Of a stretch of DNA of 59,749 bases, positions 59 through 41,248 are shown in pieces. Where the stretch lies: the NCBI GenBank assembly GCA_964428965.1, contig CAYSAF010000004.1:1-59749 (forward strand), written 5' to 3'. This DNA comes from Candidatus Woesearchaeota archaeon (lineage in GTDB: Archaea > Nanobdellota > Nanobdellia > SCGC-AAA011-G17 > VGLX01). The notes under the pieces are model-generated. The model was not told where the DNA came from, did no database searches, and was given only the letters and a program-made list of their open reading frames with translations. Every line of letters starts with the position of its first letter. The first letter of the stretch is position 1. The position numbers and the translations under genes are program-made.

Positions 59-2255
59 TTATTCGTTCTCGCCGAGTCCTTTTCTGTTCCTTATCTGTTT
101 TATTATCTTTTCTTGCAGCGTTTCCGGCAGCTTCTCGAAAACCTGGTCTACAACAAAGTAATTGCCCCTGCCGCCTGTTGTCGACCTTAAGTCAGAAGCC
201 AACCCAAACATCTCTGCTACCGGGAGTTTTGCCTTTACGGTTAGCCTTGATCCCTCCTGGTCCATGCTTAGTGGCTGTCCCCTCTTGTTCTGTACGAGTT
301 TAGAAATATCTCCTAAGTATTCTGTTGGCGCTTCTATCTGCAATACCTGTAGCGGTTCCATTATTACTGCCCCTACTGTTTGCATCGCTCCCCTTATGGC
401 CTCTCTCACTGCCGGGTACACCTGTGCTGGTCCCCTGTGGATTGCGTCTTCGTGCAACTTTATGTCTGTTAAAGTGACTCTTAGTTTCATGCACGGCTCT
501 CTTGCTAGTGATCCTCCGTCCATTACCTGTTCGAATCCGTCCATGACTAGTTCTATGACCTCTCCTATGTGCACCTCTCCCTTGACACCGTTTACGAGTA
601 TGTTTCCCCTGTACACCTCTATGAGTTTTTTTGCTTCCTTCATGGGTATGCCCATCTCAACCAGCTTGTCATATACGCTTGTGTCTTTTTTCTTCATCCT
701 TCCTTCTGGTATCTCCCCTGCTTTTATCGCCTGGTATATCTGATCTTCAAGCGGCTCTACGGTGATGTAGAATTTGTTGTGTTTGTTTGGGCTTTTTCCC
801 TCCACTTCAGGAGATTTTTTCATTACTGTTTCCCTGTACACCACTATCGGCTTGCTCGTTATAACATCAAATTTCTTTTCTGATTTTATTCTGTTTTCTA
901 TGATTTCCAGGTGAAGTTCTCCCATTCCTGACATCAGGTTTTCTCCTGTTTCTTCGTTGATTGTTATGAATATGCTAGGGTCTTCCTTGTTTACCTGTTT
1001 TAGTACCTCTACCAGTTTTGGTAGTTCTGCTGGTGATTTTGGTTCTATCGATTTTGTTACAACAGGTTCGAATATGTGTTTTATCGCTTCGAACGGTTCC
1101 ATAGGATTTGTAGAAACAGTTTCTCCAGCAAAGGCATCCTTCAACCCAACAATTCCGCAGATGTTTCCCGCTGGTATCTCGTCAACCGCTACTCTGGACG
1201 CTCCCTTGTATACCGACACTTGTTGCAGCCTTATCTGCCTCTTTGCTCCGTTCATCCATACCTCTTCTCCCTGTCTTACCGTTCCCGAGAAAAGTCTTCC
1301 TGCTGATACCTCCCCCGCATGTTTGTCTACCACTATTTTTGTTACCACGAATGCTATTGGCCCTTTCGGGTCGCAGTTTATGAGCGATTTTCCTTCCTCG
1401 CTTTCTTGGTCGCCGTGCCATATTTTGGGCACCCTGTATTTTTGTGCTTGTAAAGGATTGGGATGGTGATGTGTTATCATGTCAAGAATTACTTTGTGCA
1501 GCGGAGCTTTTTTTGCGAGCTCTTTGTAATTATCGTTGTTGTATGCTTCTATTATCTCCTTGAATGATATCTTGTGTTTCTGCATGTATGGGAAGCTTAC
1601 CCCCCACTTGTGGAATGCGCTTCCGAAACCAACGCTTCCGTCTTGGATGCTTACCTGCCATTTTGTTTTGAATTCTTCTGGTGCTATGTCTCTTATGAAG
1701 TTATTTACCGCGTTGATTATTTTGACGAATCTTTCTTGCATCTGTTCTGGAGTTAATTTAACCTCTTTGATTAGCCTGTCAACCTTGTTTATGAATAGGA
1801 TTGGTTTTACCCTTTCTCTTAGTGCCTGTCTCAGAACTGTTTCTGTTTGCGGCATTATTCCCTCGACAGCGCAGCATAGTACTATTGCTCCGTCTACCGC
1901 TCTCATGGCTCTTGTTACATCGCCGCCAAAGTCTACGTGTCCCGGGGTATCGATTAGGTTTACCAGGTATTCTTCTCCTTCAACTTCGTGCACCATCGAT
2001 ACGTTTGCAGCGTCAATTGTTATCCCCCTTGTTTGTTCGTCTTCGTGGAAGTCCAGTGCCAGCTGTTTTCCTGCCAGCTCTTCAGACATCATTCCTGCGC
2101 CTGCTAGTAAATTATCGCTGAACGTCGTCTTTCCATGTAATCGGAATGTAAGTTAAAACTTAGATTCTATCGATATGGGCACATACTCCGACGTTTCTGA
2201 TTTTCTGCGGCTCTTTCATCAGCCTTACCACTTTGTCAATCATTTTGTCTGCCAT
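59..2255 (-). CDS. fusA: Elongation factor EF-2, spliced: join(complement 2169..2255, complement 59..2137), 721 aa
   Basis: The ORF track (59..2092) lacks the N-terminus. ATG at 2253-2255 reads MADKMIDKVVRLMKEPQKIRNVGVCAHID. After removing 31 nt it continues HGKTTFSDNLLAGAG into MMSEELAGKQ. Motifs RGITI, DTPGHVDF, NKVD and the diphthamide loop LHEDAIHRGPAQ are present. Confidence 0.96.
2138..2168 (-). other. 31-nt BHB intron in the EF-2 mRNA
   Basis: Pre-mRNA CCAU-AUCG-AU|A-GAAU-C-UAAGU-UUUA-ACUUA-C-AUUC-CGAU-UA|C-AUGG: 4-bp exon stem, perfect 4-bp central helix, two 3-nt bulges and an intron hairpin. Canonical cleavage restores GAU-CAU (D-H). Confidence 0.93.
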
Positions 2256-2346: not shown

Positions 2347-2565
2347 ATGGCAACTACAATCCAGATTAGTGAAAGTTTGAAGAAGGAGCTTACTAAAAGG
2401 AAAATGTACAAGAGGGAAACCTATGAGGATGTTATATGGGGTATAATTGAGAGTACGATGGAGTTGAGCGAAGAGACTAAGAAGGCCATAAAGCAATCAC
2501 TTAAAGAGATTAAGCAAGGTAAAACTTATACTCTTGAAGAGGTAAAAAGACAAGCAGGTTTGTAA
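2347..2565 (+). CDS. Putative antitoxin (RHH-like N-terminus, RelB-type C-terminus)
   Basis: 72 aa, MATTIQISESLKKEL...IKQGKTYTLEEVK; abuts a RelE-like gene. Confidence 0.75.
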   Translation: MATTIQISESLKKELTKRKMYKRETYEDVIWGIIESTMELSEETKKAIKQSLKEIKQGKTYTLEEVKRQAGL

Positions 2566-2820
2566 ATGTATTCTATTGAATTTTCTGAACTTGCTTTGAA
2601 GCAGTTTAACAAACTGGAGAAAGTTGTTCAAGATAGGATATCATCTTCTTTGGAAAGGATAAGGATTAAGCCTGAGGCCCATGTTAAGAGTGTTGTAGGT
2701 ACACCTTTTTTTAGTTTCAGGGTTGGTGATTATAGGCTTGTAATAAAGATAGATAAAGGTAAGTTGTTAATTTTAATTATTAGCGTAGGTCACCGTTCAC
2801 ATATTTATTCTAAATTTTGA
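2566..2820 (+). CDS. relE: RelE/ParE-family toxin
   Basis: MYSIEFSELALKQFNKL...FRVGDYRLV...VGHRSHIY pattern. Confidence 0.85.
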   Translation: MYSIEFSELALKQFNKLEKVVQDRISSSLERIRIKPEAHVKSVVGTPFFSFRVGDYRLVIKIDKGKLLILIISVGHRSHIYSKF

Positions 2821-3479: not shown

Positions 3480-3640
3480 TGGATAAGCTTTGCACATAAT
3501 TGGGTTTCTTAGTAGTGCATATTACAAATTTGCATTTTTTGGGAGTTATGTGCTTGTCCATTCATAATGATGGGCTTTTGGGCATAAGCTTGTGCCCCTG
3601 ATCTAAGCATGTAGCTTAGACCCCGTTTTGCTATGTTGAA
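3480..3640 (-). ncRNA. Candidate omega-RNA scaffold overlapping the tnpB 3' end (boundaries approximate)
   Basis: Hairpins TCTAAGC-TACAT-GCTTAGA and GGGCA...TGCCC in the last ~120 nt of tnpB, where omega-RNAs are normally encoded. Confidence 0.4.
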
Positions 3641-4573
3641 TGCTGCATTTCTGTCTGCATTATCTTTGTGTCCGCATTTACATGTGAACCAGTTTTTTGT
3701 TCTTTTTCCGGTGCTGCCACAGGCAGAGCATGTTTTTGAGGTGTTCCATTCAGATATTTTTATTAGTGGGACTCCTTTTTCTTTTGTTTTGTATTCTAAA
3801 AATTGGGTTAGTTTGTAATAAGAGAAATTTGAGAGTTTTCTATTGAGTAGTCTGCCTTTAGTTTTGTTGATACCTTTTAACCTGCCTATTACAATGGCTG
3901 CTTTCTTTTTGTTTGCTTCGGTAATTATGTCTTTGGATATCTTATGTAGTAGTGTGTTTATTTTCCTTTTTTCTTTGTTTTTCATCTTTTGTATTTGTTT
4001 TAGTTTTTTATTTTTTCCGAGTTTTTTCCTTAGGTAGTAGTATTTTCCTCTTATTTGATTTAGTTCTTTTCCTATGAATTTTGTTTTTCTTGTTGAGAGT
4101 TCTATTGATGTTATGGGGTTTTTTAGGCCTGTATCTATGCCTATGATTTCTTTTGGTTTGTAGGGTTTAGGTTCGGGTATTTCTATGCAGAGGTATAGGT
4201 AGTATTTTGAATTTTTTCTTAGTAGGTATGAGTCTTTTATTGTGAATTTTTCTGGTAGGGGCTGATGGAATTTTAGTGGTAGCCACATTCCTCTTCCTTT
4301 TCTTTGGCTGTTTGGTATTTTGAGCCAGTGTTTTGTTATTTTTGTTTCTCTTTCCCTGAACCAGTCTTTTATTAGAACAGCCCAAAGTGGTAGGGAATAT
4401 TCCTTATATTTTATCTTCTTTTGTTTGAACTTCTTACTAGCTTTAAAACAGCTTAACAAGCCATGATCTATGCCAAAAATCATCCACCATTGATAATTAT
4501 TGTAGTCTGTATCAATCAGTCTCTTTTTAGATTTTGTCAGATTAATGATTGAAACTTTTACAGTCTTAATCAT
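3509..4573 (-). CDS. tnpB: TnpB RNA-guided endonuclease (IS200/IS605 family), no tnpA nearby
   Basis: RuvC-I GIDTG, IVIGRL region, ISEWNTSKTCSACG...CKCG zinc finger, NADRNAAFNI RuvC-III. Confidence 0.88.
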   Translation of the reverse strand: MIKTVKVSIINLTKSKKRLIDTDYNNYQWWMIFGIDHGLLSCFKASKKFKQKKIKYKEYSLPLWAVLIKDWFRERETKITKHWLKIPNSQRKGRGMWLPLKFHQPLPEKFTIKDSYLLRKNSKYYLYLCIEIPEPKPYKPKEIIGIDTGLKNPITSIELSTRKTKFIGKELNQIRGKYYYLRKKLGKNKKLKQIQKMKNKEKRKINTLLHKISKDIITEANKKKAAIVIGRLKGINKTKGRLLNRKLSNFSYYKLTQFLEYKTKEKGVPLIKISEWNTSKTCSACGSTGKRTKNWFTCKCGHKDNADRNAAFNIAKRGLSYMLRSGAQAYAQKPIIMNGQAHNSQKMQICNMHY

Positions 4574-9043: not shown

Positions 9044-9119
9044 TGGGGCTGGCAGGATTTGAACCTGCGACCACGTGCACCCCAAGCACGTATCATGTTC
9101 CAAGCTAGACTACAGCCCC
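9044..9119 (-). tRNA. tRNA-Pro(GGG), no intron, CCA not encoded
   Basis: GGGGCTG/CAGCCCC acceptor stem, CGTGC-TTGGGGT-GCACG anticodon arm, GCAGG-TTCAAAT-CCTGC T arm. Confidence 0.95.
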
Positions 9120-9173: not shown

Positions 9174-9698
9174 ATGATTTCAAAGCTTCTTGCTGCCCAG
9201 AAGAACGGTCTTAAGATTCCTGTTAAGAAGAAGGATGTTGTTATCTACCTTGGCGCTTCTCATGGCGTTACCGCTAAGCTCCTTGCCGATATGGTTGGTC
9301 GTCAGGGTTTCGTTTTCTGTCTTGGCGTCTCTCCAGGGACCATGATGCATCTTGTTCATGTTTGTGAGGAAGAGGAGAACATGGCCCCCCTTCTTTTTGA
9401 TCCGAACAAGCCTGAATTATACAAGAAACACGTTCCTAAGGTCGATGTTATCTACCAGGATGTAGCTGAGAAAAATCAGGTTGAGATTTTGAAAAAGAAT
9501 GCTGACGTGTTCCTTAAGGATTATGGTTATGCAATTCTTGTTTTGAAAACAAAAAGCGTTGATGTCATCCAGGATAAGGAGATTATTTTGAATCTTGTTC
9601 TTGATGAGTTGAAGAAGTTCCTTGAGGTTGTTGATTACGTTGATTTAAGCCCTTATCACAGGGAGCATTTTTTTATTGTTTGTCGTAAGAACGAATGA
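9174..9698 (+). CDS. flpA: Fibrillarin-like rRNA/tRNA 2'-O-methyltransferase (short form)
   Basis: SKLLAA, YLGASHGVT, IYQDVAEKNQ, LVLK...VD and PYHREH match the fibrillarin catalytic domain. Confidence 0.8.
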   Translation: MISKLLAAQKNGLKIPVKKKDVVIYLGASHGVTAKLLADMVGRQGFVFCLGVSPGTMMHLVHVCEEEENMAPLLFDPNKPELYKKHVPKVDVIYQDVAEKNQVEILKKNADVFLKDYGYAILVLKTKSVDVIQDKEIILNLVLDELKKFLEVVDYVDLSPYHREHFFIVCRKNE

Positions 9699-12091: not shown

Positions 12092-12438
12092 AAACAAATT
12101 GTAAAATTATAATTGTTGAATCTGTAAGTCAATACAGCAGAGAGATTGATAATAAAATAAAGAATAATACCCTCCGCAAGCCTGTAAAGGGTATGGTTAT
12201 GACTCCTGAGACTTTCAACAAGGTGTTCAGCCCTGAGAGAATAAAGCTTTTGCAGAGGATTTACAGGAACGATGTGAAGAACATCTACCAGCTGGCTAAG
12301 GAATTGGGTAAGCCGTATGAGGTTGTTTTCAGGAACATAAAATATCTCCATGGTTTGGGTTTGATCGAGATTGAGGAAAAAGACAACAAAAGTATTCCTC
12401 GTATGCGTTGCAAGCCTTCTATAGAACTGGTAGTTTGA
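12088..12438 (+). CDS. Putative HTH antitoxin/regulator (HVO_A0114-like)
   Basis: FSPERIKLL...NIYQLAKELGKPYEVVFRNIKYL wHTH. Confidence 0.65.
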   Translation: MKTNCKIIIVESVSQYSREIDNKIKNNTLRKPVKGMVMTPETFNKVFSPERIKLLQRIYRNDVKNIYQLAKELGKPYEVVFRNIKYLHGLGLIEIEEKDNKSIPRMRCKPSIELVV

Positions 12439-12474
12439 GTTATTTCCCTTCAGGCCTCACGGATAATCCTATTT

Positions 12475-12807
12475 TCATCTCGTGAATATCTCGCAAAGCT
12501 TGTTCTCAACTTCCTTTATTTTTATTTCTTGCAACTCCCCTATTTTGCTTATTATGATTGTTGTGTCTGCTGTGAATATTTTTGTCGGCCTTGCATAGCT
12601 TGTTATGTTTAGTTTTCCTTTTTGGAAGTCTTTTTCTGTTATAGCAATCGCATCTTTGTCTTCTCTTGCTTGGCTTGTTATCTGGCACAGTATGATATCT
12701 TCTCCTTTTAATGTGGCTACAACCAGGCATGGCCTATTTTTTATAGAACTTAGATCAGAGAATGGGAATGGTATTAGTACTATGTCCCCTTTTGCAAGTC
12801 CTTCCAT
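12475..12807 (-). CDS. mazF: PemK/MazF-family toxin
   Basis: KGDIVLIPFPFSD...KNRPCLVV...CQITS. Confidence 0.88.
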   Translation of the reverse strand: MEGLAKGDIVLIPFPFSDLSSIKNRPCLVVATLKGEDIILCQITSQAREDKDAIAITEKDFQKGKLNITSYARPTKIFTADTTIIISKIGELQEIKIKEVENKLCEIFTR

Positions 12808-25878: not shown

Positions 25879-27096
25879 ATGGATAGGGTTTTGGGTAAAG
25901 TTCTTGAAAAAATAAAGCCGACTAAGGAAGAGGAGTTGTTCGTCAAGAAGCTTGCTGATGATATAATCGGCAAGATTAGGGTTAAGAATGCTAAGGTCGT
26001 TCTAGGCGGCTCTGGTGCCAAGGGTACCTGGATGAAGGGAACTCATGACATCGATATTTATGTTAAGTTTGACTTTAAGAAGTACAGAGATAAAGACATC
26101 TCTAAGATCCTGGCCAAGGAGTTGTGGAAGAAGTTCTCAAGGGTTGTTTCTCTTCACGGTTCCCGTGATTATTTCAGGGTTTTCAAGGAGGAGTTTACTT
26201 TTGAGATCGTTCCGATTCTTGATATTAAGAAGGCTTCTGAGGCTGTTAACATTACAGACATAAGCCCTTTGCATACTTTGTGGCTCAGGAAGTATGCTAA
26301 GCTTACCGATGATATAAGGCTTGCTAAGGCTTTTTGTCGTGCGCAGTCTTGTTACGGTGCTGAGTCCTACATTCGAGGTTTTTCTGGTTATGTTTTGGAG
26401 ATTCTGGTTGTTAGGTACGGCTCTTTTGAGAGATTCGTAAAGGCTGTTGCTAACTGGAAGGATAAAGAATACATAGATGTTATGAAGCATGGTGTTGAGC
26501 TTAACAGGGCAAAAACCCAGTCCCCTCTTATTTTGATAGATCCTGTTCAGCCTGATAGGAATGCTGCAGCAGCCTTGAGCAGGGAGCAGTACGTTAAGCT
26601 TATTGCTGCTGCTAAGAAATTCTTGAAGAATCCTTCTGAGGAGTTTTTTGTCAGGAGAGAGTTGACCGTAGACGATTTGAGGGAGAAGGCTAAGGGCAAG
26701 ACACTGGTTCTTTTTGAGGTTGTCCCTCTTGCTGGTAAGGAAGACGTGGTCGGTGCTAAATTGCTTAAGGCTTTCACCTATATCAGGAGCTCATTCTTGA
26801 AGGAAGGTTTCACTGTTTACGATGCTTCATGGTCTTGGAATAAGAAGGCCTTGTTTTATTTCATAGTCAATTCTGGTTTGTTGCCTGAGTTTAAGGTTCA
26901 TATCGGACCTAAAGCCTCTCAGCAGAGGCACGCTTCTAGGTTTAGGGAGAAGAACAGGAGGTATGCTGTTTTTGAAGATAGGGGCAGGTTGTGTGCTAAG
27001 ATTCCCCGCAAGTTTCGTGACGCTTCTTCTTTTTCTGGGAATCTGGTTAAGGATAGTAATCTTAAGCAGTGGGTTAAGTCGTTGAGTTTATTTTAG
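25879..27096 (+). CDS. cca: Archaeal CCA-adding enzyme
   Basis: GSGAKGT...DIDIYV, GAESYIRGFSGY, LIDPVQPDRNAAAA. Confidence 0.93.
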   Translation: MDRVLGKVLEKIKPTKEEELFVKKLADDIIGKIRVKNAKVVLGGSGAKGTWMKGTHDIDIYVKFDFKKYRDKDISKILAKELWKKFSRVVSLHGSRDYFRVFKEEFTFEIVPILDIKKASEAVNITDISPLHTLWLRKYAKLTDDIRLAKAFCRAQSCYGAESYIRGFSGYVLEILVVRYGSFERFVKAVANWKDKEYIDVMKHGVELNRAKTQSPLILIDPVQPDRNAAAALSREQYVKLIAAAKKFLKNPSEEFFVRRELTVDDLREKAKGKTLVLFEVVPLAGKEDVVGAKLLKAFTYIRSSFLKEGFTVYDASWSWNKKALFYFIVNSGLLPEFKVHIGPKASQQRHASRFREKNRRYAVFEDRGRLCAKIPRKFRDASSFSGNLVKDSNLKQWVKSLSLF

Positions 27097-27633
27097 CGTT
27101 ATTACCTTGTCGCAGAACTGCCCTAACTTGTGTAGTAATTTTTCATCCGATTTCTCGTCTATTGCTAAGAGCACGCAGCTCATGTCGTGCATCCTTAGTT
27201 TTCCTGTTAGGAAGTGTGTGAATTTTATTACTGATTCTTGGTTGTTGTAGACAGTTAGCGTGTCCAAAGAGTCAAGTATCAGGAACTGGTGTACCTCATC
27301 TTTTATTATTGGTTCTAGTGCTATCCCTATTTCTGTGAGGTCTGCTGGGGAATCGACAAAGTAGCAGTTTTTTGCTATAACCTCTTTTTCTCTCAGGTAG
27401 TCTGTTATGCAGTCTACGAAGAAGAGGTTTCTGTCGTTTATGTTTTTTGATTTTAGTATTTTTGCCATGCTCTGGTATGGCCTGTTCACCGTTATGTAGC
27501 CACCTCCCTTGTACTTGTCTGTTAGTATGCTGAGAATTTCGATGCTTGTTTCCTGCATTTTTTCTGCTGGCACGATGACCAGTGCTATGAATTTTTCCGA
27601 CAAGCCTTTTAATTCTTCTTCAAGGTCTTTCAT
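27088..27633 (-). CDS. Inactive RecA/KaiC-like domain protein
   Basis: YITVNRP, FFVDC, LILDSL, FTHFL; no Walker A; paralog of 29038..29610. Confidence 0.65.
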   Translation of the reverse strand: MKDLEEELKGLSEKFIALVIVPAEKMQETSIEILSILTDKYKGGGYITVNRPYQSMAKILKSKNINDRNLFFVDCITDYLREKEVIAKNCYFVDSPADLTEIGIALEPIIKDEVHQFLILDSLDTLTVYNNQESVIKFTHFLTGKLRMHDMSCVLLAIDEKSDEKLLHKLGQFCDKVITLK

Positions 27634-28613
27634 GTGTTTTCAGGGCATTCCTGAGGATTTAAATCTTGCTTTTTGTCTTTCTTTTTGAAGAGGTGTTGGC
27701 TCATCAATGCAAGTGTTAGAATTGTTAGTACGGCCACTAATACCCCCATGTAAATTCCCTTTTTTGATTCCTTTCCGCATAGGTTTTTTGTGCAGATATT
27801 TTCCTTGCACTCATAGTCGTTGTTGCAGCTAACCTTATCTGCTTTTTGTTGTTTCATTCCCCCTTCTGTGCAGTAAACCTCTTCTGTTCTTTCTGTTATG
27901 TTGTAGCATTTTCCTTTGTAATCACAGCCGGCAGTTGCTTGATGGGTGCAGTTTCCTTCCTCGCACTTGTCTGTTGTGCAGGCATTTTTGTCGTCGCAGT
28001 CTGAGTTGTTTTGGCATTCCCCTTCGGGTTTTTCTGTTTCTGCAATTTTGCAGTCTTTGTCATTTTCATTTTTACAACCCTCTGGGCAGCAACCGTCATC
28101 ATTCTTGCATTCCGTAACATTTGTAGTTTCGCATTTCTTTTCTGAGCTGCACTTGTTTATGGTGCAGTTGTCATCATCCTCGCACTCTTTGTCTTCCTGG
28201 CACTCTGCTGTCCTGCATACGTTGCTTATGCACGTGCCTGTTGTACAGCCGCAGTCTGTGCAGCAGCTTTCGTTGCTTTCTGAAACGTTTGCGTTGCAAA
28301 TGTCGTCTCCGCATTTGATGTCTACGGTTATTTCCATGCTGATCTCTACAAACGTTTCGTCTATGTATGTGTAATTAGCTATTCTTAACTTCATCCCGTT
28401 GACTTCTTTTACATAATCTCCTAATCCTATCACGTCTTTTTTTCCGTCGACTTCTACCTTTACTGTTCCGTCATATGTTGCGTCCAGGATCGTTACCGTT
28501 TTTCCGTTTACTGTTTCTTTTGACCCTATGTTTAGTTTTTCTGCTGTTTTCGTCTCTGCGTATATGTATGAAGAAAGTAGAATGATAAGTACTGCTATGA
28601 GATATTTCCTCAT
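27630..28613 (-). CDS. Secreted Cys-rich surface protein with C-terminal membrane anchor
   Basis: Signal peptide, repeated C-x-D-x-C-D-D-x-x-x-C-T modules, C-terminal TM followed by a basic tail. Confidence 0.8.
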   Translation of the reverse strand: MRKYLIAVLIILLSSYIYAETKTAEKLNIGSKETVNGKTVTILDATYDGTVKVEVDGKKDVIGLGDYVKEVNGMKLRIANYTYIDETFVEISMEITVDIKCGDDICNANVSESNESCCTDCGCTTGTCISNVCRTAECQEDKECEDDDNCTINKCSSEKKCETTNVTECKNDDGCCPEGCKNENDKDCKIAETEKPEGECQNNSDCDDKNACTTDKCEEGNCTHQATAGCDYKGKCYNITERTEEVYCTEGGMKQQKADKVSCNNDYECKENICTKNLCGKESKKGIYMGVLVAVLTILTLALMSQHLFKKKDKKQDLNPQECPENT

Positions 28614-29041
28614 TTTTTCTTCTTTTTCATGGCTTTTTTTATTTCTGCTGATTCCTTTTCAAATCCGAATTCCTGTCCTATGCTCCATATCTTGTATGCT
28701 GCTGCTACGAAAGTTAGGTATGCTAACGTGAGTAGCGTGTATTCCAGGTAGATGAGTATTGTTCCAGTACTTATCCTAATGAAGAATCTTTCTGCTGTCA
28801 GAGCTATAGAGAAGGCCACTACAAATATGAGGCATATTATGAAGTATGTGGGATATTCCCTCAAGGACGATCCAGGTGATAGCGATTTTCTTGCCCTGTA
28901 TGACCATATTATGGCCATTATGCCAAATGTTAGTGACAGTATTCCTGCTATGAGGTCTGCTTGTTTGACTATCCACATTATAGTTATCAAACCCAGAGAT
29001 ATTGCTGTTAGGCCTATTAGGTATTTTATTCCCTGATTCAT
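28610..29041 (-). CDS. Membrane protein (4 TM)
   Basis: Hydrophobic segments; start trimmed to MNQGIK, overlapping the upstream stop. Confidence 0.7.
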   Translation of the reverse strand: MNQGIKYLIGLTAISLGLITIMWIVKQADLIAGILSLTFGIMAIIWSYRARKSLSPGSSLREYPTYFIICLIFVVAFSIALTAERFFIRISTGTILIYLEYTLLTLAYLTFVAAAYKIWSIGQEFGFEKESAEIKKAMKKKKK

Positions 29042-29610
29042 TTTTTCCCACCTGCCAAGTCTATTATCACGTCGCAGAACTGGCTTAGTTCTTCTATCAG
29101 CTCTTTGTCTGTTTTTTTCAAAGATACTATTATTCCTTTTACTTTCCACACTCTCATCTTTCCTGCTAAGAAGTGTATGAATCTCGCTACTGTTTCCACC
29201 CTGTTGTACATCAGTAGGGTGCTTAACGAGTCAAAGAATAGGAATCTTTCTTTTCCTGGAAGTGCTCTTACTGCTTGGTCCATGGCGATCGATATGTCAC
29301 TCAGATTCTCTGGGTTTCCTATGAACAGGCAGTTTTTTGTTTTTTCTGTTTTGCCACCCGCCGTTTTTGTTACCGCATCTATGAAGATTATGAGCTTTGT
29401 ATCTATCTTTGTTTTTTCAAATTCTTTTTTCATAAACTCGAAGGGCTTGTTCAGAGTTACGTAGACTCCCGGTATATTCTCATCTTTTGTTAAATGTTTT
29501 ACGAGAACGAGGTTTGTTTTTTGGTAGTTGCCGGCATCCACCGTTGCCAGTGCTATGTAATCTTTTAAGTCTTTCACCCCTTTGTCAAATTCTTCCTCTA
29601 TTTTTCCCAT
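29038..29610 (-). CDS. Inactive RecA/KaiC-like domain protein
   Basis: YVTLNKP, IFIDA, FFDSLSTL, FIHFL; no Walker A. Confidence 0.65.
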   Translation of the reverse strand: MGKIEEEFDKGVKDLKDYIALATVDAGNYQKTNLVLVKHLTKDENIPGVYVTLNKPFEFMKKEFEKTKIDTKLIIFIDAVTKTAGGKTEKTKNCLFIGNPENLSDISIAMDQAVRALPGKERFLFFDSLSTLLMYNRVETVARFIHFLAGKMRVWKVKGIIVSLKKTDKELIEELSQFCDVIIDLAGGKK

Positions 29611-29699
29611 AAACCTAAAATATGTTTTAAACTATATAAGTTTTTTGGTAAAGTTTTTATAGTAGTACTTTTTATTTAATACATTAGAGGTGGTTTTTG

Positions 29700-30416
29700 A
29701 TGGAAAGGATTAATCTCGGCATTCCCGGTATGGAAGAAGTACTTAAGACTAACATTCTTGCTGATACTTCTGTTCTCGTTACTGGCTGTCCTGGTGCGGG
29801 TAAGAGTATTTTTGCTTTGCAGTTCATTTATGAAGGTGCGAGGAATAACATTCCTGGTTTGTTAATAACCTCTGAGCGGAGCGCTCCCTCCCTGAGGATG
29901 AGTGCTTCCAGTTTGGGTTTTGATCTTGATGGTTTTGAGAAGAAGGGTCTTATTACCATTGTTGAGCAGTCTATCACTAATGGTAAGATGATTTCTTTAG
30001 AAGCCCCTCTAACTTTATTAAGAAAGAAAAAAATTAAGAGGGTTGCCCTTGATTCGCTCACCTTGTTCAAGTTTGTTTATCAGCACGGTATGGAGTTCAG
30101 GAAGGGGGTTATTAGCTTCTTGAGGCAGATGAAGGAGGCCGGTGTTACCCTCCTCGTTACCTCTGAGAGGGATATTACAGATATAGACACCTTTTTATAC
30201 ACGTCCGAGGATTACTTGTTTGACGGCATGATCATACTGACGAAGATTAGGAAGGGCTCTTCGTTTGAAAGAGTTGTTCACGTTGCTAAGATGCGCGGTC
30301 AGGATCACTCTATAGATATCTACCCATTTGTGATTGCTAAGGGCGGCATTAAGGTTATGACCAAGGAGCTTCCGTTCTCCTTGATAGAGCAAGACGTGAT
30401 GAAAGGCAAAAAATGA
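29700..30416 (+). CDS. KaiC/RAD55-like ATPase
   Basis: GCPGAGKS Walker A, ALDSL Walker B, KMRG. Confidence 0.88.
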   Translation: MERINLGIPGMEEVLKTNILADTSVLVTGCPGAGKSIFALQFIYEGARNNIPGLLITSERSAPSLRMSASSLGFDLDGFEKKGLITIVEQSITNGKMISLEAPLTLLRKKKIKRVALDSLTLFKFVYQHGMEFRKGVISFLRQMKEAGVTLLVTSERDITDIDTFLYTSEDYLFDGMIILTKIRKGSSFERVVHVAKMRGQDHSIDIYPFVIAKGGIKVMTKELPFSLIEQDVMKGKK

Positions 30417-31111
30417 CTCCGCCTGTTAAGAGAATAACTACTGGTATCGTTGGATTTGATGATTTGGTTCAGGGAGGTTTTAAGCAGGGCAGCATCAACC
30501 TTGTTTCCGGAGGCCCTGGTTCTGGTAAGACGATTTTTGGTATTCAGTTCCTTGTTGAGGGTTTGAAGAACGGCGAGCCTGGAATTTATGTCACTTTTGA
30601 GGAGAAGAAGGATAAGCTTTACGAGGATATGCTTGGCTTTGGCTGGGACCTGGAGAAGTATGAGAAGGAGGGCAAATTTGCTTTTCTTGAATACACCCCT
30701 GAGCAGGTTAAGAAGGTCCTGATTGAGGGTGGGGGCACAATAGACACGCTTGTTTCTGATATGAAGGCTAAGCGTATGGTTATTGACTCGATAACCTCTT
30801 TCACCCTGTTGTATAAGGACGAGCTCGTCCAGAAAGAGTCATCCCTTGCTTTGTTTGAGTTGATTAACAAGTGGGGTTGCACCGCTGTTCTCACATCTCA
30901 GGAGGAGACTCCTGATGGCTCCACAATTACCGCTGCTCTCGAGTTCGAGGTTGACAGCATAATTCTTCTTTATCATCTTAGGAGGAAGGGTTCAAGGGTT
31001 AGGGCTATCGAGATTCTTAAGATGAGGGGTACAAAGCATCCTGAGAAGACTTTTGGTTTGGAGATTACGAATAAGGGTGTCAGGGTTCTGGATAAGGTTT
31101 GTGAGATATAA
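30413..31111 (+). CDS. KaiC/RAD55-like ATPase
   Basis: GGPGSGKT, VIDSIT, LKMRGT. Confidence 0.9.
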   Translation: MTPPVKRITTGIVGFDDLVQGGFKQGSINLVSGGPGSGKTIFGIQFLVEGLKNGEPGIYVTFEEKKDKLYEDMLGFGWDLEKYEKEGKFAFLEYTPEQVKKVLIEGGGTIDTLVSDMKAKRMVIDSITSFTLLYKDELVQKESSLALFELINKWGCTAVLTSQEETPDGSTITAALEFEVDSIILLYHLRRKGSRVRAIEILKMRGTKHPEKTFGLEITNKGVRVLDKVCEI

Positions 31112-31676: not shown

Positions 31677-32630
31677 TTATAAGTCAAAGTATGGGTCATC
31701 TACTTGGTATTTTGTTCTATGGCCTGAATCTATCCTGAACCAGCTCTGCATCCCCTTTATGGGCACTCCCGATGTTGAGGACCAGTATTCATGGTCCACA
31801 ACGCTGTAATCGTAGACTGGTATTCCTTGTGAGCTGAGCTTTTCAAGGTTAACCATGCTTTCTATGCCGTTTTGCGATCCTGTCATTTTTCCTTCGAACC
31901 TCATCAGGAAGTCAGGTGCATCTGTGTTTTCTGTGTAGTACATCTTGGTTACATGATCCCTTAAGTTGTTCACATCCCAAACGCCTGGGCTCACTTGGTA
32001 TGTGTAGTTGCCTTCATACAGAGTTCTGTTTATCACGTTTGTGTATCTTCCGTAGGTGTTTACTATGTACAGCGGATCTTCAAATCCTTCTACGCTTATG
32101 ATTGATATTATCGTCGGTCTCCTGTTCCACGATGCCAGCCCTCTTATGTCTTCTGCTATCACTGTTGCATTCAGCTCTAGTTTTATGTGCCAGGGGTCTG
32201 TTTGGTAGACTGCTAGTTCAGGGTCTCTCACCTCCAGGTTTATGTTTAGGTTGTTTCCCTTCTCTCTTACGTTGGCCACCCATTCGTAGATGGTTGATCC
32301 GCTGACAAGCGCGTCTTGTGTTCCGTTTACTGTGCCGTTGAAAATTGCTTCTTGGAACGCTTCTTGTGTGCTGTTGATGTATGTGCCGTTGGATTTTAGC
32401 AGGTATTGGTTTAGTGCAAGCACACTTCTGAATCCTGTTATGTAGAGTGCTCTTTGTATGTCCTCTTCCACACCGTCTATGTATTGGTCCATGGTGTCTA
32501 TTCTTGTCCTGGTTAGGTCTATTTTTTCTTCTAGTTTTGTTTCTGTTTTTGTTTTCACGAAGAACAGAAATATGAGTATGAACATTATTGCCAACAGTGT
32601 GTAAAAAACCCCTTTTTTTCCTATTGCCAA
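31677..32630 (-). CDS. Minor pilin-like protein
   Basis: KKG/VFYTLLA class III-like signal followed by a hydrophobic helix. Confidence 0.75.
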   Translation of the reverse strand: MAIGKKGVFYTLLAIMFILIFLFFVKTKTETKLEEKIDLTRTRIDTMDQYIDGVEEDIQRALYITGFRSVLALNQYLLKSNGTYINSTQEAFQEAIFNGTVNGTQDALVSGSTIYEWVANVREKGNNLNINLEVRDPELAVYQTDPWHIKLELNATVIAEDIRGLASWNRRPTIISIISVEGFEDPLYIVNTYGRYTNVINRTLYEGNYTYQVSPGVWDVNNLRDHVTKMYYTENTDAPDFLMRFEGKMTGSQNGIESMVNLEKLSSQGIPVYDYSVVDHEYWSSTSGVPIKGMQSWFRIDSGHRTKYQVDDPYFDL

Positions 32631-35600
32631 GTTCTCACCTCTGCTATGGTTGGGCCCCAGAGGTATGGCACCCCTGGTATGGCTATTATTTCTAGTTGCA
32701 GGTCGTTCTTGTCTATGTTAACGTCGAGTAAGCTGTCTTGGTCGAAGTCCAACTGCCTGATTAGTTGTTCTACTGCGCTGTTTATAGAGTCTTGTTGTGC
32801 GCTTCCAGGGGTATAGACAGTTCCGTTGTGGTAGTACACACATAAGTTGCTGCCTGTGTAATTGCTTGGTATCTGTATACTTTCATTAGTTCCGTCTTCG
32901 AACTCAACATACCACGTGCACCCTTCTGCTTTTCCGTATATGTCTGAGTAGTTTATTGCTAAGTCCACCCCTACCTTGTAAATTACTTTGTTGTCTGGCG
33001 ATCCTCCTGTGTAGTTTTGGGGGCTTATCCCTGTGCTTATCCTTGCTGTGTTGTTTCCCTGTTGCACGTTTTGTACAGGCACTTGTATGAAGTAAGGGTC
33101 TCCTAGTATTGTGTAATCTTGGCCGTAGTCTGCAAGTTTGTATATTTCAGTTAAGTTGTTTAAGAGCAGGTAGTCAGTCCACATGTCTGATGAGTACGAC
33201 GTTACTTTTACGTCTAGCACGTTTACGTTTGGAGGTATTTCGAAAATTCCTTCGCTGATGTTGTTTCCGAACGGTGTGCTTTCTAGTGGCACTGGTATGT
33301 TTCCGAACTGGAGGGTGGTTGTTGGGTTATAACTTAGTTTTATGTATGAATCAGGGTATAGTATGCTTTCGGTAACGTTTCCAGTTATGTTCAGCCCTTG
33401 TTGTGCGAAGCTTATCACTACCATCTCCTGTGCTATCCTCTCGTATATATAAACGAGTTCTTCTGCGCTGTTGCTAGTGTAGAAGTGTGAGCAGTCGTCG
33501 CAGCATGCTGATTGGTTCAGCGTGTTTATTGCACTAGAACCTGCATTGCCGAATGCTACTGCATAGATGCTTATGTTGTAGAGGTTGTGTGCTTCGCATG
33601 CTTTTCTTATTGTTTCCTGTGAGGGTGTTTCCCAACCTGATACAGTTGTGCACGTTGATGATCCATAGTTGTGGCAGTCTGCTATCTTCGTGTTTGCTTC
33701 TCCGTCGCTCATTATCATCATGGATTTGAACCTATCGTAATATTCGTAATCATTCGCTGATATGGTGCTTATGTTAATATTCCTTACTATCCATGTTTTC
33801 TGGTTTCCTGTTCTGTTGCATCCGGCTGAAGTTCCCCCTGTCATCATCAGATCGTTTTCCCCGTTTTTTAGCCATATTACAGGTATGTCTATGGTAACGT
33901 TTTGCCATTGGTTCGTTCCTGACCATCTCTGGTAGTCGACTCTTCCTAGATAATAGTTGTTTACAAATATGCAGTTGTACAAGTTTGGTTCTACGTCCAT
34001 GGTTTCGAAATCCAATCTTGCAGACTTAACCTTGTTGTCTATTGCTAGGTTGAATTTGGGTATGCTTTCGTTGTAGAACCTTACTGCTATGTTGTCAAAC
34101 CTGAAGTACCCCCATTCGTCGGTTTTGTCTGATGTTGATTTTCCTCCTATGTCCAGGTAGTACCATCCTGCCCCTTCTATCCATGGTGTTATGTCTTGTA
34201 AGTATGTTCTGTTCATCTCTGTGTCTGGGTTGTCTACTGCGTCTATTTCATAATCCTGGTCTGATGTTGAGTGTCCTGTGTCGCTTTGGTTTCCGAACCA
34301 GTGGTAGCTTGAGTATGGGCTGTACCATCTGCCTTTTATCCAAACCTCGTCTCCTGTCTCGAATGGGTTGGTTGGGTTGGAGTACCATTCATAGTCAAAT
34401 GATACTTCTGCTCTTTTTCCGCTTGTTATGTTTTGGTATGCCTCATTCGATATGTAAATCTGTATTCCGTAAGCCCCTGATCGCTGAGCGTTTCCAGCAG
34501 CATAGATTTCTAGTTTTCCGTTTACAACGCCGTTGAAAGTCATGCTGCCTGTGTAATTGTATATCCCTGACTGCCAGTCCCACCCGTCGTCCCCTGCTCC
34601 AGGTCCGAATGTGTTTGCTGTGCTCTGCATTCCATTTGTGAAGTCTACGGGGTTGGGTTTATCTTGTTCTACTTCTGAGATGTTAATCGCGTTGTTGTCG
34701 TTAACGTATCTCAGATAAAAGCCTGCTTGTAAATAACCTTGGGCGTATGACGATTTTGATTCTATTGATGTGTTTGAGTGCCATAGTTCGATGGTTACGT
34801 CTTTGAAGTCCCAGTCATCCTGGCTTCCTGAGGTATCTTCACATCCATTTACGTTGCCGCCAGTTATTTTTACCGTATTTGTTCCGTTGCTTATCCTGTT
34901 TTGTTCTATGTCATATATGCATGTGTGCCATCCGTAAACCCCTACTTCGTTTGAGTCGCAGATTTGTCCTAAGTATTGATTGTTGAGGTAGACGCAGTCC
35001 TTGTAGCCGTAACTTACATCTACGTCTTTTCCGAATATCGTTATTCTTGATTTTACGAGTTTTTCTTTGTCTACTTCTAAGTTGAAGGTTTCTGTTACTG
35101 ATACAGATCCATCGTCCCCTAGGTGGTATTGAGTCGTGTTTACGGTTTCTGTTCTGCTAAGTCCATACGTTGTTTCTTTTTCCATCAGTAGGGTTGTTGC
35201 GTGATCAACACCGCAAGATATGCATGTCCACCCGCAGTCCTGCCATTGGTTGTTGTAGTTGTAATCATTTATCCTGTTCTGGATTGATGTGTTGTCTTCG
35301 CTGAAGAATTTCATGTCGCATACAGGGCTTGCTCTTTCCCCATAACCTATCAATCCTACCGTATTTCCTTTTGTTGACAGTATTGTGTTTACGAAGCTTT
35401 TGTCTGCGTCTACTGCCACGTCTTTCCTCGTGTTTTGGCATCCTGAGGACCACCAGTTGCAGTCTGGTCTTGTGCAGTTTGTCGATTGCACGTCACAGTC
35501 GCTCATGCTGCCTGTTCTGTCTGTTATTAGTGTTACGTCTGCTTTCCCCCCCTCCCCTGGCAGCAGCGTTAGGTTTCTTGTTCCTATCCTCAGCGGCACT

Positions 35601-36679
35601 GTTTTTTCGCTTAGTGCTGAGTAGTTTAAGCTTAGGTTTTCTATTAGTACGTTTACATCACCTAAATATCCGTCGCTTTCGTATACTGTTGTGTTGCCTA
35701 TGTTCACATACATAGTGTAGTTGTTGATGTAGTGAAGGTACAGCTTTATGTCTGTTAAATTCCCAGGAGTGTAAAATGATGTGTACAGGTTTATTATTCC
35801 CTGTATGCCGGGTAGCCATTCTTTTTGTATCATCTCTTGTTGTGTGAACGTCAGGTTTAGTTCTGAGGTTTCGTATGCTACTTTTATGTAGCCTCCTCCT
35901 ATGTAGTTTGAGAGGTTGTCTGTGAAGTTTATTTTTATGAGGTTTTCTCCTGTGACCAGGGAGGTTAAGCATGACGAGTTTAGGTACCAGCTTTCAGCTC
36001 TCATGGTTCCGTTTTGTTGTATGTTTAATCTGTCGCAGTATATGTCATTTATGTAGAGGTCGAAGTTGTTTCCAGCATCCAGCTCCATATAGGCATAGTG
36101 TATCGTTGTTGTTTCCGGCAACTCGATCTTTTGTGTTATTATTCCGTCTCCGACATAGCCCCCGAAGAATGAGTAGGTTGCGCTTGACTGGGCATTTAGC
36201 CCTGTTAAAAAAACTCTGGAAGCATAACCCGTAACGTCTTCTCCTTCTACTATGCCTGATATCATCCTTCTGTAGCTGGCCAGGTTTGTTGCTTCGCTCT
36301 GGTTAAGGTTGGATAGCAAGTCTCCTCCCATCGCTATCCCTATGTTGTATGTTTCTGGTATCAGCTCTTTTGTTATGTTTTCTGCTATGTTTTTTGCTAT
36401 GTCTGTGTTTCCTGTTGCCCAGAATTCTCCTATAAGCTCTAGTATTGTTGAGTTGTCATTTCTTACGCTTCCGTTGTTAATCAACTCTGTTATGTAATCG
36501 TTGTCTATTTCGTTCACTTTGATTGTTGAGAGTATCTTTGCAAGGTCTTCTGAGTAGGTGTTGAGCTGCTCTTTTTCTGGTTTTCCGACGTAAAGCAAAG
36601 GCATGACTACTAGCAGGGTTATTATTAGGCCCACTGCTATTAGTGCGTCGAATGTGAAGTAATATCCCTTCAATCCCAT
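32621..36679 (-). CDS. Large pilus-associated vWA-domain protein (adhesin-like), 1352 aa
   Basis: KG/YYFTFDAL class III-like signal; MIDAS-like DRTGSM; ...SDGEAN; IYAVAFG. Confidence 0.78.
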   Translation of the reverse strand: MGLKGYYFTFDALIAVGLIITLLVVMPLLYVGKPEKEQLNTYSEDLAKILSTIKVNEIDNDYITELINNGSVRNDNSTILELIGEFWATGNTDIAKNIAENITKELIPETYNIGIAMGGDLLSNLNQSEATNLASYRRMISGIVEGEDVTGYASRVFLTGLNAQSSATYSFFGGYVGDGIITQKIELPETTTIHYAYMELDAGNNFDLYINDIYCDRLNIQQNGTMRAESWYLNSSCLTSLVTGENLIKINFTDNLSNYIGGGYIKVAYETSELNLTFTQQEMIQKEWLPGIQGIINLYTSFYTPGNLTDIKLYLHYINNYTMYVNIGNTTVYESDGYLGDVNVLIENLSLNYSALSEKTVPLRIGTRNLTLLPGEGGKADVTLITDRTGSMSDCDVQSTNCTRPDCNWWSSGCQNTRKDVAVDADKSFVNTILSTKGNTVGLIGYGERASPVCDMKFFSEDNTSIQNRINDYNYNNQWQDCGWTCISCGVDHATTLLMEKETTYGLSRTETVNTTQYHLGDDGSVSVTETFNLEVDKEKLVKSRITIFGKDVDVSYGYKDCVYLNNQYLGQICDSNEVGVYGWHTCIYDIEQNRISNGTNTVKITGGNVNGCEDTSGSQDDWDFKDVTIELWHSNTSIESKSSYAQGYLQAGFYLRYVNDNNAINISEVEQDKPNPVDFTNGMQSTANTFGPGAGDDGWDWQSGIYNYTGSMTFNGVVNGKLEIYAAGNAQRSGAYGIQIYISNEAYQNITSGKRAEVSFDYEWYSNPTNPFETGDEVWIKGRWYSPYSSYHWFGNQSDTGHSTSDQDYEIDAVDNPDTEMNRTYLQDITPWIEGAGWYYLDIGGKSTSDKTDEWGYFRFDNIAVRFYNESIPKFNLAIDNKVKSARLDFETMDVEPNLYNCIFVNNYYLGRVDYQRWSGTNQWQNVTIDIPVIWLKNGENDLMMTGGTSAGCNRTGNQKTWIVRNINISTISANDYEYYDRFKSMMIMSDGEANTKIADCHNYGSSTCTTVSGWETPSQETIRKACEAHNLYNISIYAVAFGNAGSSAINTLNQSACCDDCSHFYTSNSAEELVYIYERIAQEMVVISFAQQGLNITGNVTESILYPDSYIKLSYNPTTTLQFGNIPVPLESTPFGNNISEGIFEIPPNVNVLDVKVTSYSSDMWTDYLLLNNLTEIYKLADYGQDYTILGDPYFIQVPVQNVQQGNNTARISTGISPQNYTGGSPDNKVIYKVGVDLAINYSDIYGKAEGCTWYVEFEDGTNESIQIPSNYTGSNLCVYYHNGTVYTPGSAQQDSINSAVEQLIRQLDFDQDSLLDVNIDKNDLQLEIIAIPGVPYLWGPTIAEVRTWQ

Positions 36680-38898: not shown

Positions 38899-39750
38899 AT
38901 GATTGATAAAAAAAAGAGGGTGACAGTAGCTCCTAATCCTGTTAGAGCGTTCTCAAATAAGCCTGATAAGAAGGACTTCAAACCCTCCCATAAAGTGGGT
39001 GGTAAGCTTAAGAAGTTGTCTAAGTACTTTACTTTCTTTGCTTTGTTGTTGTTCCTTGTTTTCCTGATTTACCTTTTGGTTGTTAAGAGCGAGATGATTT
39101 CTTCCACCTGGGTTTACAGCGCTCTTGGCTTGATTGCCGGTCTGCTCTTCCTGGTTAATCTTTATTTTGTGAAGAAGCACTCTGATAAGGTTAAGGATTT
39201 CTTCTCTAAGTTTAAGCGTGTCAAGGTGGTTGAGGAGAAGAAGGTTGTCGGTGTTGTTGTTGATGAAACTAAGAAGGTTGGGAAAGAGAAGGTTAAGAGT
39301 AAGGTTAAGCCCAAGGTCGTGTTGTTCGTTACGTTTTTTGTTCTTGGTGTTGTTGCTCTTCTTATACTTAATTCTAGGGGGGTAATCTCTTTTTCCAGTC
39401 CTTATTTCCTGCTTAGCGTAGGTGCTCTGTTTCTCATCTCCCTGGTTGTTGTGTCTTTAAGGTTTTACAGGTATCACAAGTCTAAGATGGAGATCCAGAA
39501 GAGTGTTTCTAAGGAGAATATAAGCGTGATTAAGAAGAGCATAGTTGCTAAGGCAAGCAAGTATAAAACTGATTTGGATCGTTTGTATGAGCTAGTTAAT
39601 GAGAAGGGTAAGCTTACTTTGTCTGATGTTGCTAAAGGCTTTAACATTTCTATCGAGATGGCTGAGGAGTGGGCTAGGATTCTGGAAAGTCATGACCTGA
39701 TTACCCTTAACTATCCTCCTTTCGGTGAGGTGGAACTTTGCAAGAAGTGA
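38899..39750 (+). CDS. Membrane protein with C-terminal winged helix
   Basis: 4 TM segments; TDLDRLYELVNEKGKLTLSDVAKGF...EEWARILE. Confidence 0.72.
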   Translation: MIDKKKRVTVAPNPVRAFSNKPDKKDFKPSHKVGGKLKKLSKYFTFFALLLFLVFLIYLLVVKSEMISSTWVYSALGLIAGLLFLVNLYFVKKHSDKVKDFFSKFKRVKVVEEKKVVGVVVDETKKVGKEKVKSKVKPKVVLFVTFFVLGVVALLILNSRGVISFSSPYFLLSVGALFLISLVVVSLRFYRYHKSKMEIQKSVSKENISVIKKSIVAKASKYKTDLDRLYELVNEKGKLTLSDVAKGFNISIEMAEEWARILESHDLITLNYPPFGEVELCKK

Positions 39751-41243: not shown

Positions 41244-41248
41244 TTGCA

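Follow-up and report, generated by a model that had tools for sequence, protein, structure and literature searches.

Introns in coding sequences are extremely rare in Archaea. The pre-mRNA of cbf5 reportedly carries an intron of the bulge-helix-bulge (BHB) type, which is said to have been described by Watanabe et al. in 2002 and by Yoshinari et al. in 2006. In the open-access literature searched, cbf5 is the sole archaeal gene with a BHB intron in its coding sequence, and is accompanied by a single case in a 5′ untranslated region (UTR), that of HVO_1309 in Haloferax volcanii, whose excised 46-nt intron occurs in circular form (Schwarz et al. 2020, PMC7714728). A 2023 review held that further archaeal mRNA introns probably remain to be found. 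The present analysis concerns contig CAYSAF010000004.1 of a Candidatus Woesearchaeota archaeon (the window: the whole 59,749-nt stretch of DNA that was analyzed), in which the gene for elongation factor 2 (EF-2) is interrupted by 31 nt within the codons of its GTPase P-loop. This interruption is very probably an obligatory BHB intron that is removed by RNA splicing, a reading put forward in a preliminary description of the locus and followed up here by structure prediction, comparison with related genomes and metagenomes, and analysis of codon constraint. A protein search places the host among the Woesearchaeota/Nanoarchaeia-type DPANN archaea.

The interrupted EF-2 gene and its predicted spliced product

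The EF-2 gene lies on the minus strand. Exon 1 (2255..2169 (-)) starts with the ATG at 2255-2253 and comprises 29 codons, the last of which are GCC CAT ATC GAT (..AHID), while exon 2 (2137..59 (-)) starts with CAT GGA AAG ACG ACG (HGKTTFSDN...) and comprises 692 codons and the stop codon at 61-59. Between GAT (2171-2169) and CAT (2137-2135) lies the 31-nt BHB intron (2168..2138 (-); AGAAUCUAAGUUUUAACUUACAUUCCGAUUA, as read in the DNA AGAATCTAAGTTTTAACTTACATTCCGATTA), which splits the P-loop codons GCC CAT ATC GAT | CAT GGA AAG (AHID|HGK). The open reading frame (ORF) that begins at ATG 2255 (-) translates to MADKMIDKVVRLMKEPQKIRNVGVCAHID followed by R-I-stop, giving an unspliced frame of ...CAHID-R-I-stop in which the third intron codon is a UAA stop (2162..2160 (-)). 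The remainder of EF-2 sits in a different frame from exon 1, and is represented in the ORF list by a 677-aa frame with its start at 2092.

Excision of exactly 31 nt joins the two exons at the predicted junction ...GTATGTGCCCATATCGAT|CATGGAAAGACGACG (GAU-CAU, Asp-His) and yields a 721-aa protein with an intact AHIDHGKTT motif and the full set of EF-2 domains. This protein scores 1083 bits against the NCBIfam archaeal EF-2 (aEF-2) equivalog TIGR00490 (cut-off 738), covering positions 4-717 of 720, and aligns without gaps across AHIDHGKTT to Pyrococcus horikoshii EF-2 (5h7j, E = 2.5e-277). Exon 2 holds the diphthamide-site motif HEDAIHRG. When the spliced protein was used as a tblastn query, residues 1-29 mapped to exon 1 at 100%, and no second EF-2 was found in the window. 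The preliminary description had stated that the insert separates AHID from HGKTT, that its excision restores Asp-His, and that the unspliced frame reads AHID-R-I-stop; the full-length spliced aEF-2 and the translation of the unspliced frame agree with it on all of these points. It had also anticipated that gene callers would report an EF-2 lacking its P-loop, and this is what is observed: the gene-called product of the window EF-2 (P0002) has 677 aa and no P-loop, and a second such protein of 677 aa, P0028 from the related locus L001, carries the JGI name ‘elongation factor 2’. EF-2 is among the standard marker genes for phylogeny and genome completeness, and pipelines that use it would meet P-loop-less 677-aa proteins or split proteins in the intron-bearing lineages.

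Predicted fold and cleavage sites

Folding of 2186..2125 (-) with RNAfold gave a minimum free energy (MFE) structure identical to the centroid, ((((((((...((((.(((((....))))).))))))))...)))), which corresponds to a canonical hBHBh′ motif with two 3-nt bulges on opposite strands, a 4-bp helix between them, and helices flanking both sides. The outer exon-exon helix is formed by CCAU (5′ strand, 2178..2175 (-)) and AUGG from CAU GGA (3′ strand, 2136..2133 (-)), through the pairs C2178-G2133, C2177-G2134, A2176-U2135 and U2175-A2136. The central 4-bp helix is formed by the exon strand AUCG (2174..2171 (-)) and the intron strand CGAU (2143..2140 (-)), through A2174-U2140, U2173-A2141, C2172-G2142 and G2171-C2143. 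The intron-internal hairpin (2167..2144 (-)) contains the inner helix, in which GAAU (2167-2164) pairs with AUUC (2147-2144; G2167-C2144 to U2164-A2147), followed by UAAGU (2162-2158) paired with ACUUA (2153-2149) and closed by a UUUA loop.

BHB motifs are cut between bulge residues 2 and 3 (PMC2738675). Applied in silico to the 5′ bulge AU|A (2170..2168 (-)) and the 3′ bulge UA|C (2139..2137 (-)), this rule places the cuts at 2169|2168 and 2138|2137, coinciding exactly with both ends of the insert and giving GAU-CAU. The helices, bulges and cleavage sites of the canonical BHB proposed earlier were reproduced in every detail by the MFE and centroid folds. All 12 of the flanking and central pairs are Watson-Crick pairs in the sole register that restores the frame, for which the chance, with the register fixed, is ~(1/4)^12. 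The junction itself, CCAUAUCGAU-CAUGG (2178-2169 + 2137-2133 (-)), is near-palindromic, with CCAU/AUGG arms around AUCGAU, and the outer helix of the BHB comes from both His codons of AHIDHG. These features may explain why the EF-2 P-loop site can host a BHB intron.

Same-site introns in related genomes and metagenomes

A comparison of fusA in relatives had been suggested as a check, and was carried out as a genome scan with one genome per species, yielding 80 related loci, of which ~73 have a readable N-terminus. An insert of 30-39 nt lies exactly between the Asp and His codons in 11 of the 80 loci. A twelfth locus, L035 (1579-1610), has a 32-nt insert 4 nt upstream, within the Ile codon (CAU AU|A...UU|U GAU CAC), where cleavage according to the BHB rule again restores AHIDHG. 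Intron carriers therefore make up ~12 of the 73 related species representatives (~16%), and the others lack the intron. The L035 intron has a good central helix (GCAU/GUGC) and no proper outer helix, and its shifted position could reflect intron sliding or an independent insertion. What looks like a 17-codon gap in L078 consists of a stretch of N, and was rejected as an intron.

A pattern scan of metagenomes, in which only exon bases were fixed and the intron content was unconstrained, gave 44 matching loci. An insert at the junction of an EF-2 gene was present in 42 of these; the matches L091 and L096 are not EF-2 and were rejected. In total, 37 distinct inserts of 28-39 nt were collected at the same EF-2 codon junction from independent genomes and metagenomes. 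The EF-2 of L001 (P0028), which is 80% identical to that of the window, has a 39-nt insert at the same junction, and the closest EF-2 genes, those of L003 (P0001, 94% aa identity) and L062 (88%), are uninterrupted. A covariance model (R1), built from the intron family including the window sequence, scores 59.8 bits at 2130-2180 (-) and no more than 12 bits in the rest of the window, and among the 80 related loci it recovers the known intron loci alone, with L035 only weakly matched.

All carriers of the intron belong to a single large clade, and none was seen in the basal clades that were sampled. Within this clade, sister pairs differ in intron presence, as exemplified by the window and L003, and by L106 and the 91%-identical L127. 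The patchy distribution and the differing sister pairs imply frequent loss or gain of the intron. Among the 120 EF-2 proteins listed, none matched the full-length spliced product of an intron allele at 100% identity, the closest of those listed being P0074 (99% over 200 aa), which comes from an intron-less genomic allele with 91% DNA identity.

Conservation of structure, codons and reading frame

Structure conservation was assessed in an alignment of 35 sequences comprising the exon flanks together with 7 bases from the start and 12 from the end of each intron. Standard pairs occupy 89.8% of cells, compared with 71.7% in shuffled alignments (0/500 reach the observed value), and slid registers are just 29-39% paired. 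The covariation score is 0.501, against 0.137 after shuffling (0/500), and cells in which both sides have changed number 95, against 27.5 in the shuffles. In the outer helix 97.9% of cells are paired, each position being paired in 33-35 of the 35 members. The figure for the inner helix is 88.1%; the five inner-helix pairs closest to the central helix are retained in 31-35 of the 35 sequences, and at each of them 4-5 types of standard pair occur. Across the exon-intron border, the third base of the exon Ile codon covaries with its intron partner (C-G in 26 and U-A in 9 of the 35 sequences, with none broken). RNAalifold, applied to the untrimmed full-length alignment, independently recovered the same architecture, while an alignment of the introns only gave no consensus structure, MAFFT having misaligned the 5′ ends. 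Together with the constraints on the exons described next, these alignments show that an RNA structure spanning the exon-intron borders is under selection.

The exon codons that contribute to this structure are also constrained at synonymous positions. In the species-representative set, GCC CAT ATY GAT|CAT is present in 9 of 11 intron alleles, compared with 3 of 61 intron-less alleles, and the synonymous positions of Ala-His-Ile-Asp-His vary freely in the intron-less relatives. The ratio of nonsynonymous to synonymous substitution rates (dN/dS) between the window EF-2 and the intron-less orthologue in L003 is 0.036, with a dN of 0.049 and a dS of 1.44 for exon 1, and the host gene is thus under strong purifying selection, exon 1 equally so.

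In the exon-1 frame, all 37 distinct introns contain a stop, which in 30 of them is reached by the third codon, whereas base-shuffled introns give 21.7 +/- 2.9 (maximum 31), and the numbers of introns with a stop in the other two frames are 18 and 5. The stop may be UAA, UGA or UAG, and occurs at several positions. Intron lengths fall into all three classes modulo 3 (16, 10 and 11), and in the 16 introns of a length divisible by three, read-through would otherwise be possible. The universal stop suggests selection against translation of the unspliced message into an EF-2 with a P-loop insertion, though with a significance that is overstated by the kinship of the sequences.

Proposed splicing mechanism

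In the proposed mechanism, the EF-2 gene would be transcribed as a single pre-mRNA, in which the exon codons GCC-CAU-AUC-GAU and CAU-GG would pair mutually and with the 3′-terminal part of the intron and, together with the intron hairpin, form the hBHBh′ structure. The splicing endonuclease EndA would cut both 3-nt bulges between nucleotides 2 and 3, so that exon 1 ends in GAU and exon 2 begins with CAU, and an RtcB-type 3′-phosphate ligase would join the exons to give GAU-CAU, an intact AHIDHGKTT and the 721-aa EF-2. The 31-nt intron would be released, probably as a circle, with the predicted circle junction ...TTCCGATTA|AGAATCTAAG. Translation of any unspliced mRNA would stop at the UAA in intron codon 3, so that no EF-2 with a disrupted P-loop would be made. 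EndA cleavage and RtcB ligation are proposed because they constitute the established BHB pathway; we infer not only these agents, but also efficient splicing, circularization of the intron, and any regulatory role.

EndA enzymes with broadened-specificity loops have been reported across DPANN lineages, in a survey that included a Woesearchaeota genome (PMC5829648). The window encodes the RNA 3′-phosphate cyclase RtcA (56021-57034 (+)), an enzyme of the RtcB-type RNA-end pathway, which lends weak support to the splicing reading. Downstream of RtcA lie a free-standing ORF of 389 aa (57380-58549 (+)), which has a weak LAGLIDADG_3 match and no relative in a PDB search, and then RNase HII (58582-59250); RtcB does not adjoin RtcA.

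Weighing of splicing and its alternatives

The claim that EF-2 contains an obligatory BHB intron in its P-loop is supported by the same-site introns, the compensatory changes, the synonymous constraint on the exons and the purifying selection on the gene. Several points nevertheless weigh against it. Splicing is predicted from DNA sequences, their comparison and the fold. The folding energy is unremarkable (z = -1.5), and a loose BHB pattern (4+4+4 bp, G-U allowed) is common in the window, with 158 + 23 matches, such matches being frequent by chance in its G+T-skewed sequence; the motif by itself is therefore uninformative, and the single-sequence case rests on the 12 Watson-Crick pairs in the protein-restoring register. 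The decisive evidence for the intron is comparative. As the members of the intron family are related, the significance of the shuffle-based comparisons is in turn inflated. The first pair of the central helix is A-U in 13 of the 35 members, and A.G in 19, A.C in 2 and A.A in 1, and two introns have a 4-nt 3′ bulge. The window intron is thus canonical and the family as a whole is a relaxed BHB, and since most members deviate from the strict motif, their cleavage needs a tolerant endonuclease. No EndA was found in the window by Pfam searches of its 52 ORFs, and no RtcB by the same searches and by PDB searches with the next two ORFs downstream of RtcA, both enzymes being assumed to be supplied by the host. 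Lastly, the search for EF-2 copies covered one contig, and a second intact copy may exist elsewhere in the genome.

Four other explanations can be set against splicing. One of these holds that EF-2 is simply broken, the insert marking a pseudogene or an assembly or sequencing artefact, as might be suspected from the gene caller's finding only the 677-aa P-loop-less ORF, and from the lack of the insert in the nearest relatives, L003 (94% aa) and L062 (88%). This explanation is extremely improbable, in view of the 37 distinct same-junction inserts from independent assemblies and samples, the BHB fold of which is kept by compensatory changes; the dN/dS of 0.036 and the constraint on exon 1; and the intact start codon, exon-1 frame and exon 2. 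Indels arising by chance would not appear repeatedly at a single phase-0 site and share a conserved structure, and the combination of structure conservation, codon constraint and purifying selection excludes both pseudogene and artefact. Another is that ribosomes skip the 31 nt by programmed bypassing or frameshifting during translation, and the locus does bear a superficial likeness to phage T4 gene 60 in having a stop soon after the would-be take-off codon and a hairpin within the gap. The take-off codon GAU is, however, unmatched, the codon preceding CAU being UUA in the window and GCA, GUG, CCG, UAU and others in the family; gap lengths in all three classes modulo 3 (16, 10, 11) rule out simple frameshifting; and the conserved features are those of an endonuclease substrate, including covariation in the exon-intron central helix that bypassing does not require. 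Bypassing or frameshifting is accordingly exceedingly unlikely.

An explanation that accepts the BHB as an endonuclease substrate is that EndA cuts it without rejoining, resulting in inactivation or regulation of the mRNA in the manner of tRNA-endonuclease-initiated decay, with functional EF-2 supplied by another locus or by pieces joined in trans. EndA-type enzymes are known to cleave some yeast mRNAs without splicing (PMC10485636), and the genome is known from one contig only. On the other hand, the 29 codons of exon 1 are under the same purifying selection and remain in frame to the cleavage site in all lineages, the cleavage sites always restore Asp-His precisely, no second EF-2 is present in the window, and archaeal BHB products are normally ligated (tRNA, rRNA, cbf5, HVO_1309), leaving cleavage without ligation very unlikely. 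The idea that the insert is some other intervening sequence, such as an intein, a group I or group II intron or a miniature transposon, draws on the presence of a real intein in the same P-loop codons of related genomes (HGK|C...HN|TT), and of a TnpB/IS605-type gene 1.3 kb away (3509-4573). Its probability is close to nil, since 31 nt with in-frame stops is too short and too interrupted for an intein and lies well below the hundreds of nucleotides of a group I or group II ribozyme core, of which Rfam detected none in the window, and a miniature transposon is contradicted by the lack of terminal inverted repeats or a target-site duplication and by ends that are set by RNA pairing with exon codons.

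P-loop inteins and possible roles of the intron

In related EF-2 genes, an intein occurs between Lys and Thr of the P-loop (AHIDHGK|C...HN|TT), 9 nt downstream of the intron site. L032, L046 and L053 have the intein only, L039, L049 and L050 have both the intein and the BHB intron, and an intein is probably also present in L036, L060, L063 and L081. The loci with both elements contain mini-inteins of ~190 aa without a LAGLIDADG domain, while L032 and L053 contain ~480-aa inteins with LAGLIDADG motifs and no intron.

A further idea, tentative and rather unlikely, is that the intron is more than a passive passenger, being a mobile or selected RNA element that targets the P-loop, a checkpoint on EF-2 synthesis, or both. 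The patchy distribution and the shifted intron of L035 could be the outcome of several gains at a single site, with reverse splicing or gene conversion as possible routes into the near-palindromic CCAUAUCGAU-CAUGG. The intron could also break the target of a homing endonuclease and so shield the allele from invasion by the intein, although the sample is small. A checkpoint tying EF-2 synthesis to EndA/RtcB capacity could also arise from obligatory splicing in combination with the in-frame stop common to all the introns; the related proposal in the preliminary description, that EF-2 supply is coupled to splicing activity, is pure speculation.

Search for further split genes and other features of the window

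The preliminary description had also suggested that the organism splices housekeeping mRNAs in the plural, for which the 59.7-kb window gave no support: no second BHB-split coding sequence was found in it, either by a scan for BHB motifs that join ORFs, or by the covariance model R1 with filters off. The scan recovered the EF-2 intron as the only match that rebuilds a real protein, the other 33 matches being joins of antisense frames or of adjacent genes. In the most gene-like of these 33 (12503..12381), a complete MazF/PemK-type ORF would be fused to a spurious one, and this join was rejected with the rest. At the gathering threshold, Rfam identified three tRNAs only in the window. The fibrillarin gene (9174-9698 (+)) begins at position 54 of the 227 positions of its Pfam profile and lacks the N-terminal domain of ~50 aa; a tRNA-Pro on the opposite strand (9044-9119), 54 nt upstream, leaves no room for the missing part. 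This gene could be truncated or split.

Directly upstream of EF-2 are two adjacent ORFs of 72 and 84 aa (2347-2820 (+)), which resemble a toxin-antitoxin pair by their translations only, and beyond them lies the TnpB/IS605 OrfB-type gene (3509-4573 (-)), which has a Cas12f1-like TNB domain. Between EF-2 and a C39-like peptidase, the closest relative, L002, has called genes of other sizes, for which Pfam gives no match. The window also contains several KaiC/RecA-like ATPase genes (27088-31111 and 43161-43988), near which are encoded a type IV pilus/archaellum-like ATPase with two T2SSF-family membrane proteins (39738-43119), and, in the same neighbourhood, a 1352-aa protein with weak VWA matches (32621-36679).

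Significance and comparison with known systems

No BHB intron in EF-2 or in a DPANN mRNA was found to be reported in the open-access literature searched, which included a paper on EF-2 evolution and a preprint of 2026 that covers 208 complete genomes of Nanobdellota. By this literature, EF-2 would be the second archaeal protein-coding gene to need BHB splicing. The introns described here would represent a second, independently evolved family of coding-sequence BHB introns, located in another superphylum, the DPANN archaea, and in the catalytic P-loop of an essential single-copy translation GTPase, and widespread, with 37 sequences. The family provides a natural dataset of one mRNA that satisfies codon constraints and endonuclease-substrate constraints together, indicates how an in-frame stop may make unspliced mRNA harmless, and offers a ready substrate set for studying the specificity of DPANN splicing endonucleases.

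The closest described system is the cbf5 intron of Crenarchaeota (Yokobori et al. 2009, PMC2738675), which is likewise a short coding-sequence intron in a housekeeping gene, with a BHB or BHB-like fold to which exon and intron both contribute, cuts predicted to fall between bulge residues 2 and 3, motifs that are often relaxed, and a patchy distribution among related lineages that implies gains and losses. By contrast, the EF-2 intron is located in another gene, in a DPANN Woesearchaeota-like lineage, and at the G1/P-loop site of a GTPase, and its splicing is predicted, whereas that of cbf5 is experimental. The host endonuclease is probably also of another type, several DPANN having an alpha4 enzyme with an L3 loop in place of the (alpha-beta)2 enzyme of Crenarchaeota (PMC5829648). 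Membership of the EF-2 intron in the cbf5 intron family of Desulfurococcales and Sulfolobales was considered and rejected, as gene, lineage and site all differ. The HVO_1309 intron is similarly an mRNA substrate of the archaeal splicing endonuclease, as predicted for EF-2, but is located in an untranslated leader and leaves the frame uninterrupted, whereas removal of the EF-2 intron would be obligatory for the protein.

The BHB introns of pre-tRNA and pre-rRNA share the hBHBh′ geometry and, as expected, the EndA and RtcB enzymes, and differ in that the EF-2 intron lies in an mRNA coding sequence, where no tRNA body aids recognition and the exon halves of the helices are constrained as codons. 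Splicing of the eukaryotic XBP1/HAC1 mRNAs by IRE1 and RtcB resembles the process proposed here in the non-spliceosomal excision of a small mRNA intron by a protein enzyme, RtcB-type ligation, and a change of frame, but involves IRE1 as the endonuclease and a twin stem-loop motif, and is regulatory and stress-induced. The EF-2 P-loop intein is an intervening sequence within the same nine codons, 9 nt downstream, but is in frame, ~190-480 aa long, and removed at the protein level by an unrelated mechanism.

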